From Octopus sinensis (Eukaryota), in assembly GCF_006345805.1 (NCBI RefSeq), contig NC_043019.1, forward strand, positions 4,153,360-4,217,359: a DNA stretch of 64,000 nucleotides. Reading direction: 5' to 3'. The position numbers and the translations under genes are program-made. Position 1 is the stretch's first letter; every line of letters starts with the position of its first letter. The notes under the pieces are model-generated. The model was not told the origin of the DNA. It ran no database searches and was given only the letters and a program-made list of their open reading frames with translations. Shown here piece after piece: positions 12,601-38,789 of this stretch.

Positions 12601-15600
12601 TAGGCCCTTCAACCCCACAGGTCTGTCTACCACCCAAATGCTGGTTTGTTTTGCTCATCACATCAAGCTAAACCTAATTATTAAGCAAACCCTGGCACAG
12701 ATTAATATCTCCTCAGTCCAGGAGCCGTTGGGGTTATCCCGAAGTGGTGGAAAGAGACCAGATGGTCTTACCCTCTGTCCCTGGGTCAGAGGTAAGCCCC
12801 TCATTTGGGACACCACAGTCTGAAATTCATTTTTTCCCCACCACATCCTGGATGCTGCAATTATGGGAGGGTTACTGCTTCCGTAGCCGAATAGAAGAAA
12901 ACCCTGAAGTATTGGGACCTAACAGTGAACATTCTCTTCCAACTTGTGGCATTTAAGACGTTCGGAGGGACTGGGCCCCTAACTGAAAATTGTAAAACTG
13001 AAACTAGTTTTCTTCATAATAGTTCTGTTCTTGCATTGTTATGATATAATCTCAATATTATGATATAATCTCAGTGTTATGATATAATCTCAGCGTTATG
13101 ATATAATCTCAGTGTTATGATATAATCTCAGTATTATGATATATCTCAGTGTTATGATATAATCTCAGCGTTATGATATAATGTCAGAGTTATGATATAA
13201 TCTCAGTGTTATGATATAATCTCAGTGTTATGATATAATCTCAGTGTTATGATATAATCTCAGTGTTATGATATAATCTCAGTGTTATGCTATAATCTCA
13301 GTGTTATGATATAATCTCAGTGTTATGATATAATCTGGCCGTGATAATGTCCTAACACTCAGAATGAAACATTATCTAGAATTCATTTTTGGGTAATAAT
13401 ACTTTACACTCGAATAAGGATGTGATTAATATCACTGTTTCCCTGTCTCTGTCTCTGTCTGTCTCTGACTGTCAGTCAGTCTCTCTTACTCTCTCTCTCT
13501 CTCTGTCTTTCTATCTCTCTCCTTCTCTCTCTCCTTCTCTCTCTCCTTCTCTCTCTCTTTCTCTTTCTCCTTCTCTCTCTCCCCCCGTTTGTACAATGTG
13601 CATGTATACTGATGACTCACAGCTCATTTTGTTAAAACCTGTGTGGAATTCCAGTTACGTGTGCATCTGTCTCCGCTTTCAATGATAATACACACATGCA
13701 TGCACACACACACACACATACACACACACACACCACACACACACACACACATACAGTATGCGCTTGCTCACACAAGCACACGTACACATACAATATGTTC
13801 ATACGTTCACATACATACACACACATACATACATACGTACGAGAAACAATTATGTCAGCAACTTACTGGCACATTTGCTGGTGGCATGTGAAACAACATT
13901 CAAGCGAGGTCGTTGCCAGTGCCGCTGGACAGGCTCCTGTGCAGCTGGCACATAAAAAGTACCATTTGAGCGTGGCCGTTGCCAGTACCGCCTGACTGGC
14001 CCTCGTGCCGATGACATCCAGCTGAAGGGCATCAAGTTGTAGAAACTCTGCCAGATCAGATTGGAGCCTGGTGCAGCCATCTGTTTAGCATGGAAAGCAG
14101 ATGTTAAACGATGATGATGATGATGATGAATATACAGCAAAATATATTAAATACTTTTATAAGTCAATACTGTTTTCTCCTGTGTTAGCAGTGCTATTAA
14201 ATCACATGTTAAAGACATCTCTAAAGATTTCCTAAAGAAATATAGCCAGCACTCATTTGCTTCGGATACAAAACACCATAACAAACCACTGCTGGTTACA
14301 ATTTCTCCCGAAAAATCTAAAGAGATAACCGTAAAAAGCTCTTATTTTTATTTCCAGTCATACTAATCTTTTTTGGTTTCAGTTTCAAAGATGTAAAGGA
14401 AACTTCCAAGATATCCAGCACGACCATTACTCATTTTACTCTTGATCTAACAAAGTCAGTTCCTTGATTAATTAACAATCTATCTGGGACACGAGCAATT
14501 CAACAGCAGAATCCTCTACGACTTCTTCGAACCCTCCATCATTTGCAAGTGTCCCATCACCTAAGTTTGATGTAGACTTTGTTCTTGTGGAAAATTTATA
14601 AAATTTTATTTTTCTAAGCATCATACATAGTTGAGGGTTCCACTTTATCCCATGACACAACAATTATCTCTTCTGTTTATCTTCACCAGAATTCCAGCTT
14701 TTGAAAATTCAGAAAGACGAAAGAAATTTCTAAAGTATCAGTATGGCAACACCATATCGATTACCCCCCAATTACATGAGACAGCAAGGCAATTCTGGCA
14801 GACACTTTGTTGGACGACATGATGAGAGGGAAAAACTGAAGATCTTGATCAAGGATGAAGATACTCAAATAATACAAGTTTATGGACTGCCTTATGTTGG
14901 CAAAACAAGTCTTGTGAAAACTGTAAGAAATTTACTATTGTTTTCTCATTTTTTTACGTTAACCTTATTGCATTTTGCGTTTCTGTAGGTTATTAGGGAT
15001 TCTTGAGGTTTACAGTTAAGTTACTGACTAAAGAGGAAAGCATTTCTGGTTCAATCCCATACAATGGCAGTCACTGAAGTCTTTGTACCATTTGGTGAGT
15101 TGATGGTTGACCTATGATCAAAGGTATTTCTCCTGTAACCATTCTGTCTATGGCAATGATCATATTATTTAATGTATCCTGTCCTATGTTATGAAGAAGG
15201 TGGGCAATTTGGGAGAGGTTTGACTGCTTTATATATTATGTATGTAAGTGAGTGGGTGGGTAGGTAGGTAGGTAGGTAGGTAGGTAAGTAGTAGGTAGGT
15301 AGGTAGGTAGGTAGGTAGGTAGGTGGTATGTATGTAGGTAGGTAGTAGGTAGGTAGACAGGCAGGTAGGTAGGTAGTAGGTAGGTATGTATGTAGGTAGG
15401 TAGGTAGGTAGGTAAGTAGATAGGTAGGTATGTAGGTAGGTAGGTATGTAGGTAAGTAGGTATGTAGGTAGGTAGGTATGTAGGTAGGTAGGTACGTAGG
15501 TAGGTAGGTATGTAAGTATGTAGGTAGGCAGACAGGTGTGTATATGTGTGTTTGTGTGTTTGTGTTTATGCTTGTATGCATCTGTGAACGTGTGTATGTT

Positions 15601-38789: not shown

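Follow-up and report, generated by a model that had tools for sequence, protein, structure and literature searches.

The stretch of Octopus sinensis DNA analysed here (the window; 64,000 nt, C23:4153360-4217359 of genome G000) contains a ten-exon gene that matches annotated 'uncharacterized' Octopus proteins of about 858 aa. With middling confidence, we read it as a member of a tandem cluster encoding an effector-less STAND-TPR protein, likely an intracellular and probably defence-related sensor, whose frame breaks are likely errors. Ten ordered exons on the + strand, spanning 14690-38985, were located by tblastn of the full-length Octopus proteins P0003, P0007 and P0010 (856-858 aa), mapped back onto the window, and by blastn of a neighbouring intact copy. 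Nucleotide identity per exon to the neighbouring intact copy encoding P0007 is 93-99% (blastn), far above chance, and the nine introns carry GT-AG at all 18 splice sites as read from the window copy, in which the motif LSYFPGRF was also found. The exon count and motifs of the initial annotation were borne out by this mapping; the end it gave, 38789, lies 196 bases short of the true end at 38985, and the TAA at 38787-38789 arises because two 1-bp deletions shift the frame there. A split of exon 2 into several exons was considered and rejected, since its breaks are indels of 1-3 bp. The features, in window coordinates, are:

14690-14922, + strand: exon 1, 53 nt followed by the ATG at 14743, a 21-aa leader, FVGR and the Walker A motif GLPYVGKT
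14731-14733, + strand: in-frame TAA just 5' of the ATG at 14743, in exon 1
16293-17310, + strand: exon 2, remainder of the NB-ARC-type module (Walker B ICIFDD, GLP, winged helix, VQE at the MHD position) and start of the arm
16404, 16665, 16686, 17148 and ~17226-17230, + strand: five small indels in exon 2 of the window copy
21260-21414, + strand: exon 3, arm and first TPR helix, with 1-bp deletions at 21323 and 21371
28026-28173, + strand: exon 4, TPR, with +1 at 28091 and -1 at 28153
29212-29321, + strand: exon 5, TPR
30950-31063, + strand: exon 6, TPR, with the conserved Asn570 (P0007 numbering)
31549-31693, + strand: exon 7, TPR, with the conserved Asn614 and one extra A at the 3' end
32470-32581, + strand: exon 8, TPR
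34725-34992, + strand: exon 9, final TPRs, with His700 and His742 as candidate zinc ligands and an in-frame +3 at 34844
38667-38985, + strand: exon 10, capping helices and CxxC tail (Cys817, Cys820), stop codon at 38983-38985, two 1-bp deletions at 38786-38788
5762-45906: block with a near-identical twin, in inverted orientation, at G000:C23:3927433-3967591 (98.65% identity, 110 mismatches, 330 gap openings)

The gene had been called hidden, which is apt for the window, where only a fragment is annotated, the 120-aa RefSeq model P0029 (LOC115223660) matching exons 5-7, but not for the neighbouring copies, which have full-length RefSeq models. Together with P0021 (164 aa), P0029 matches fragments of the window copy and its twin, and the reduction of this gene to a 120-aa annotated fragment, probably through uncorrected indels, serves as a caution. 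The largest family ORF of the window (16379-17167) matched 15 proteins in a word-based search, all from Octopus or Argonauta and all uncharacterised, and Rfam returned no match.

As assembled, the window copy has no open frame, with 13 gap openings over its ten exons, 11 of them not a multiple of three. These 13 coding indels are likely assembly errors, because no lesion is common to the twin, indels outnumber substitutions about 3:1 and there is no nonsense substitution. The twin, about 40 kb long and about 200 kb from the window block, lacks each of the 13 indels and has lesions of its own. Outside tandem repeats the two differ by 188 indels and 60 substitutions, compared with 103 gap openings and 497 mismatches in two ordinary paralogue pairs, and at non-repeat and exon sites 26 transitions and 40 transversions were counted. 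An excess of indels and transversions is the pattern expected of an uncorrected long-read consensus. Stop codons are absent from the 813 projectable codons of the window copy, and of 795 codons that could be compared, window and twin differ at only 5. Window and twin may represent a single locus that was assembled twice; likewise, C476, C766 and C2724 are three renderings of one stretch.

It is improbable, in our view, that the family is functional and the window copy a recent pseudogene in a birth-and-death cluster. The 11 frame-breaking indels fit such a reading as assembled, but the lack of any lesion common to the twin and the excess of indels and transversions do not. The codons private to window and twin (9 nonsynonymous, 3 synonymous) also count in its favour and are compatible with neutrality, though other copies look alike, whereas the missing nonsense substitutions, the complete set of GT-AG borders and the O. 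vulgaris models P0018 and P0020, which are nearest to window and twin and open over the exons modelled, argue for a working gene. Among the reads, no run contains more than 0.56 of the exon-2 words and no contig examined carries the private alleles of the window copy in full, which would suit a pseudogene; against this, redundancy of a like, error-type kind is also seen in the neighbouring twin pair and in three small contigs. Contigs from four read runs carry frame-restoring letters at four exon-2 sites, yet they are without the substitutions private to window and twin and therefore represent paralogues or collapsed copies, not the window copy; as a copy-specific test of the indels they were rejected, because contigs drop rare variants.

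The window copy lies among ten exon-2-bearing copies within 450 kb (C23:3.91-4.30 Mb), some of them redundant; with two partial 3' copies the cluster extends over C23:3.886-4.340 Mb, in both orientations, and perhaps six to eight distinct copies are left once likely redundancy is removed. Divergent paralogues with the same exon layout are located on C26 and C12701, with a weak one on C10852, and 12 family models were found in O. vulgaris. The C12701 paralogue (L057:6859-7965) has degenerate GxP and winged-helix motifs and conserved TPR exons, and a near relative of it occurs elsewhere (P0041, 85%). The window gene (14743, +) stands head-to-head with the intact paralogue P0003/P0022 at C23:4147659 (-), 20 kb upstream, an arrangement repeated in the twin block. 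Moreover, the last exon is duplicated at C23:4124044-4124916 and an exon 4-10 block is duplicated 3' of the P0007 gene at C23:4076382-4086899; annotated isoforms draw on alternative 3' copies, and TPR ends could be swapped in this way.

Members of the family are spliced as modelled, and transcription was seen for the family, not for the window copy. In two runs, contigs extend from exon 2 into sequence of exons 1 and 3, and the exon 7-exon 8 join was present in single contigs in two of three; that these runs (X1, X11 and X20) are RNA is a guess, supported by the spliced joins and the lack of cover of exon-flanking bases.

In its anatomy, the protein almost certainly comprises an NB-ARC-type STAND module, about eight kinesin-light-chain-like TPRs and a CxxC tail. 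Its fold was predicted from 60 aligned sequences (pLDDT 86.7, pTM 0.78; an earlier eight-sequence model was poor, pLDDT 63.5), and the model contains an NBD, helical domain 1 with GxP, and a winged helix. The first-ranked Foldseek match is the archaeal STAND-TPR protein PH0952 (E 2.2e-10), followed by SAMD9, CED-4, APAF-1 and plant resistosomes; with VIA-align, model residues 20-389 matched CED-4 at Z 23.2 (rmsd 3.8, 329 residues) and the wheat resistosome at Z 23.0, while the family profile matched the PH0952 sequence at E 1.6e-25 (best stretch 23-370). The motifs hhGR, Walker A GxxxxGK[ST] and Walker B hhhhDD are present in the window and intact copies. Among family rows, 35 of 36 retain the Walker A Gly and Lys, 48 of 48 the GxP proline (Pro204) and 24 of 42 the first Walker B Asp; erosion of Walker B is often found in non-cephalopod relatives, and many relatives may be inactive, to judge from the sequence. 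Canonical motifs of this class include a sensor-1 Arg (hhhTTR) and the MHD His. In the octopus protein sensor-1 reads ILILSGG, with the Arg absent, and the MHD position reads VQE (FQVQE), with His replaced by Gln; His is kept there in 15 of 49 family rows. Octopus proteins score 15.9-19 bits against Pfam NB-ARC (PF00931), under the cut-off of 23.5, which was passed by 7 of 33 relatives scanned (P0054, P0069 with 43.8 bits, P0072, P0086, P0105, P0123 and P0141); NACHT gave no match in octopus proteins at E 0.1, and the fold matches listed are of NB-ARC type.

The C-terminal half is TPR, with TPR_12 at 63.7 bits (cut-off 30.1), and is all-helical in the model, with eight helix pairs at 436-771 and no LRRs. 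The nearest solved TPRs are those of KLC1/2 (E 1e-13 and 6.8e-34), and the repeats are equally similar to the non-immune scaffolds KLC, LGN, APPBP2 and APC/C. Groove asparagines are kept in 43 of 48 (Asn570) and 42 of 48 (Asn614) family rows. The NB-ARC-like NTPase joined to TPRs that had been proposed from the window alone is supported as anatomy by the profile and fold matches; that reading missed the cluster, the mollusc-wide family, the lack of an effector and the deviating MHD and sensor-1 positions.

By profile match, the family spans cephalopods, gastropods and bivalves, with relatives in a hemichordate and a crinoid. Searching 1.84 billion representatives gave 49 matches at E 1e-30 or better, and the range was drawn from this search and from names for 20 of the 150 matches listed, four having no name. 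Named matches came from Argonauta, Patella, Lottia, Haliotis, Batillaria, Solemya, Pecten, Pinctada, Mercenaria and Mya and, outside the molluscs, from the hemichordate Glandiceps and the crinoid Antedon, while word-based homologue searches returned octopods only, or Patella and generic STAND-TPR proteins. A midpoint-rooted tree was built from 44 NTPase regions, 9 of the 53 rows in the alignment having been left out for low cover; in it, the octopod cluster belongs to a group of 14 rows (100/100), every named one from a cephalopod, which lies next to mollusc and mixed groups. Consecutive gene ids suggest tandem pairs in Batillaria and Haliotis. No characterised orthologue came up among the homologue names checked, in line with the earlier suggestion that the gene may be uncharacterised; the names were 'uncharacterized', 'hypothetical', 'NB-ARC domain-containing', 'MalT-like TPR region' and 'nephrocystin-3-like'. 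The STAND-TPR architecture is already known in fungi, bacteria and corals; among titles and the starts of abstracts we found no paper on an effector-less, His2-Cys2-tailed, conversion-shaped mollusc family, members of which genome papers may list as expanded TPR families.

The superstructure-forming repeats that follow the NOD in tripartite NLR-like receptors are present in the octopus protein (TPR_12), and the effector part of such receptors is missing, no N-terminal effector domain being recognisable in the octopus copies. The NTPase begins at residue 22, and the 21-aa leader before FVGR is not conserved and has no recognisable motif. Most relatives have a leader shorter than 45 aa, and many end in a long C-terminal tail of low complexity. 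A RHIM-like N-terminal motif occurs in two sister limpet proteins, Patella isoform X1 (P0201) and Lottia (P0050), which alone among 210 proteins compared have its strict pattern; it scores 10.8 bits (Pfam cut-off 20) and is absent from Patella isoform X2 and from a P. caerulea model. We consider it very improbable that the octopus effector lies in an unannotated upstream exon, RHIM-like as in Patella X1, and signals by amyloid templating. The difference between the Patella isoforms and a splice acceptor one base before the ATG in two octopus copies (C23:4219481 and 3910492) are in line with such an exon, as are the RHIM-NACHT-repeat proteins described in amphioxus (PMC4262963), a paper whose main text mentions neither molluscs nor NB-ARC. 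However, seven copies, that of the window included, have an in-frame stop 12 nt 5' of the ATG, octopus RefSeq models begin with MATPY, and neither the pattern scan nor the two-sequence profile scan, which covered ~730 kb surrounding the octopus copies, revealed a RHIM-like ORF. Searching G000 with PF12721 returned five matches, all weak (best E 1.9) and none of them close to the cluster; none of 14 control genomes had a match.

Furthermore, homogenisation has kept the NTPase exon alike from one paralogue to another, while the TPRs still fall into old types. A comparison of type A (P0007) with type B (P0035) gave a dS of 0.13 for the NTPase and 1.26 for the TPRs, and the high-identity tract consists of exon 2 with ~100 and ~35 bases of flank. 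Two Argonauta proteins have 99% identity over exon 2 and 29-58% over the nine remaining exons, with assembly collapse possible in Argonauta. Exon 2 groups by genus and exons 3-10 by type across genera, and the two trees conflict in AU tests (p 1e-56 and 3e-4, each alternative rejected), for which the type groups were named post hoc, after the dS comparison had been seen. The homogenisation is most simply explained by gene conversion. Among eight young copies, positive selection was not found, with pN/pS below 1 in all regions (0.50 in NB-ARC, 0.69 in TPR) and no excess in groove-lining helices over the rest (0.67 vs 0.70).

By analogy with related proteins, the octopus protein probably acts as a ligand-gated STAND switch, likely working like the sensor half of tripartite NLR-like receptors. 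Extrapolating from PH0952/MalT, CED-4 and plant NLRs, the resting protein would be a monomer with bound nucleotide, kept closed through contacts of the arm and the TPRs, and a ligand would open the switch, leading to ATP loading and oligomerisation. The asparagine ladder retained in the TPR groove makes a peptide or protein the most likely ligand, and paralogues would differ in their TPR ligands and have a common, interchangeable NTPase module. More speculatively, the oligomer, having no effector, would signal via a recruited separate partner, a step for which limpet relatives may use the RHIM-like motif.

The tail may add a further control. His700 and His742, 42 residues apart on successive inner helices, form with Cys817 and Cys820 of the CxxC a candidate zinc site. 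The histidines and the CxxC occur together in 28 of 44 rows, neither in 12, and 4 are mixed; all four residues are found together in most mollusc members and are jointly absent from a second group, and since this pattern follows the tree, it counts as one event, not 28. The protein ends 38 residues past the CxxC. Alignments to KLC1-cargo-peptide fusions reach residue 819 of the model and residue 707 of the chain, the latter presumably where the cargo peptide binds, which would put the tail at the peptide site. We therefore put forward, tentatively and at slightly less than an even chance, that the CxxC tail folds back into the TPR groove as a plug pinned by zinc through the four residues, and that a ligand must displace it.

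Among known systems, STAND-TPR proteins of the PH0952/MalT type (PDB 6MFV; PMC6468293) have the same NOD-arm-TPR order and give the best whole-protein fold match, and the family profile matches the PH0952 NTPase by sequence. They are prokaryotic and ~13% identical, however, and the octopus protein adds the CxxC tail, introns and a paralogue cluster. In MalT the output is a DNA-binding domain, which is absent from the octopus protein. The NB-ARC of CED-4, APAF-1 and plant NLRs has the same NBD-HD1-WHD fold (Z 21-23, rmsd 3.5-3.9) with Walker A, Walker B and GxP, whereas the octopus protein is without CARD, TIR or CC, has TPR in place of WD40 or LRR, VQE at the MHD position and no sensor-1 Arg. 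Fungal NLRs of NB-ARC-TPR type, some with short amyloid N-termini (PMC12258605), likewise combine NB-ARC with TPR_12, and the Atlas clusters nearest to the octopus protein include basidiomycete and cnidarian STAND-TPR proteins; a short N-terminal motif is found in fungal NLRs and limpet relatives alike. Unlike the fungal proteins, that of octopus has no HeLo, patatin or PNP effector, and its TPRs are divergent exon-coded units, not near-identical repeats. Corals, too, have animal STAND-TPR genes (NACHT/NB-ARC) for which lineage-specific tandem expansion is reported (PMC4083563), but the coral proteins carry Death, DED, CARD or glycosyltransferase domains, and the likeness is one of architecture. 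SAMD9/SAMD9L (PMC5445408), animal antiviral proteins with a STAND-like NTPase and TPR, take Foldseek ranks 2-5; the octopus protein lacks their SAM, AlbA, Sir2-like and OB domains, and its TM-score to SAMD9 is 0.18-0.20, so it is not an orthologue. Animal NACHT-LRR NLRs resemble it in tripartite-like switch logic and lineage-specific expansion, yet with an NB-ARC-like NTPase, TPR repeats and no effector it falls outside the definition given in PMC3879445.

An immune role of the family, extrapolated from such likenesses, is in our judgement an even call. Its main rival, somewhat unlikely, is that the family is a non-immune scaffold or cargo adaptor whose TPRs bind peptides the way those of kinesin light chain or LGN do, with a regulatory or vestigial NTPase. 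The closeness of the solved KLC1/2 repeats, the Walker B erosion in many relatives, the absent effector domain, a relative named nephrocystin-3-like and the fact that no positive selection was found by pN/pS all agree with an adaptor, but the complete NBD-HD1-WHD module, which matches CED-4 and resistosomes, and the RHIM-like motif of limpet relatives point to a sensor, as does the repeated tandem duplication with exon-level conversion, which is unusual for a housekeeping adaptor. Rather unlikely, on the other side, is the most far-reaching reading: NB-ARC-TPR immune sensors would make up a bilaterian family not described before and overlooked in Pfam NB-ARC/NACHT surveys, with a zinc-plugged groove, some limpet members that signal through RHIM, effector loss in octopods and expansion there into a cluster whose NTPase exon is kept alike by conversion, so that paralogues of different TPR specificity can co-assemble. 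These sensors would form the main NLR-like repertoire of a NACHT-poor animal. A six-frame search of the genome gave two NACHT matches and no NB-ARC match, both counts being exon-limited lower bounds; the NACHT matches (C17:23658676 and C19:28239681) lie in frames open over 1333 and 781 aa. In cephalopods, intracellular pattern recognition has been little charted, and a clustered, transcribed STAND-TPR family missed by standard cut-offs provides concrete candidates. If true, an effector-less His2-Cys2-tailed sensor, a limpet RHIM form and conversion restricted to the NTPase exon would each extend the picture of how animal NLR-like proteins diversify.

Gaps at C23:4107624 and 4210705 bound the 103-kb piece that contains the window copy. 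A 100-N scaffold gap occupies window positions 57345-57444, and the sequence past it (~57500-62800) looks homopolymer-rich and of low quality. Remnants of Mariner/Tc1-like transposases lie at 6657-7103 (-) and 18141-18428 (+), the second matching DDE_3 under the cut-off, and intron 3 contains, at 23830-25603 (-), an RT-like ORF followed by a GIY-YIG-like ORF, which we take to resemble a Penelope-like element. In O. vulgaris, a gag-like N-terminus of model P0031 was rejected as a true fusion, as it matches the neighbouring retrotransposon type. About 200 bp past the stop codon of the window gene, an LTR retrotransposon, Ty3/gypsy-type by inferred label, extends over 39194-44639, with direct repeats at 39194-39783 and 44008-44639 (89% identity) and frameshifted gag-like, RT, RNase H and integrase ORFs; a 97.5% copy of it lies at C23:4087711-4091336, 3' of another cluster copy.
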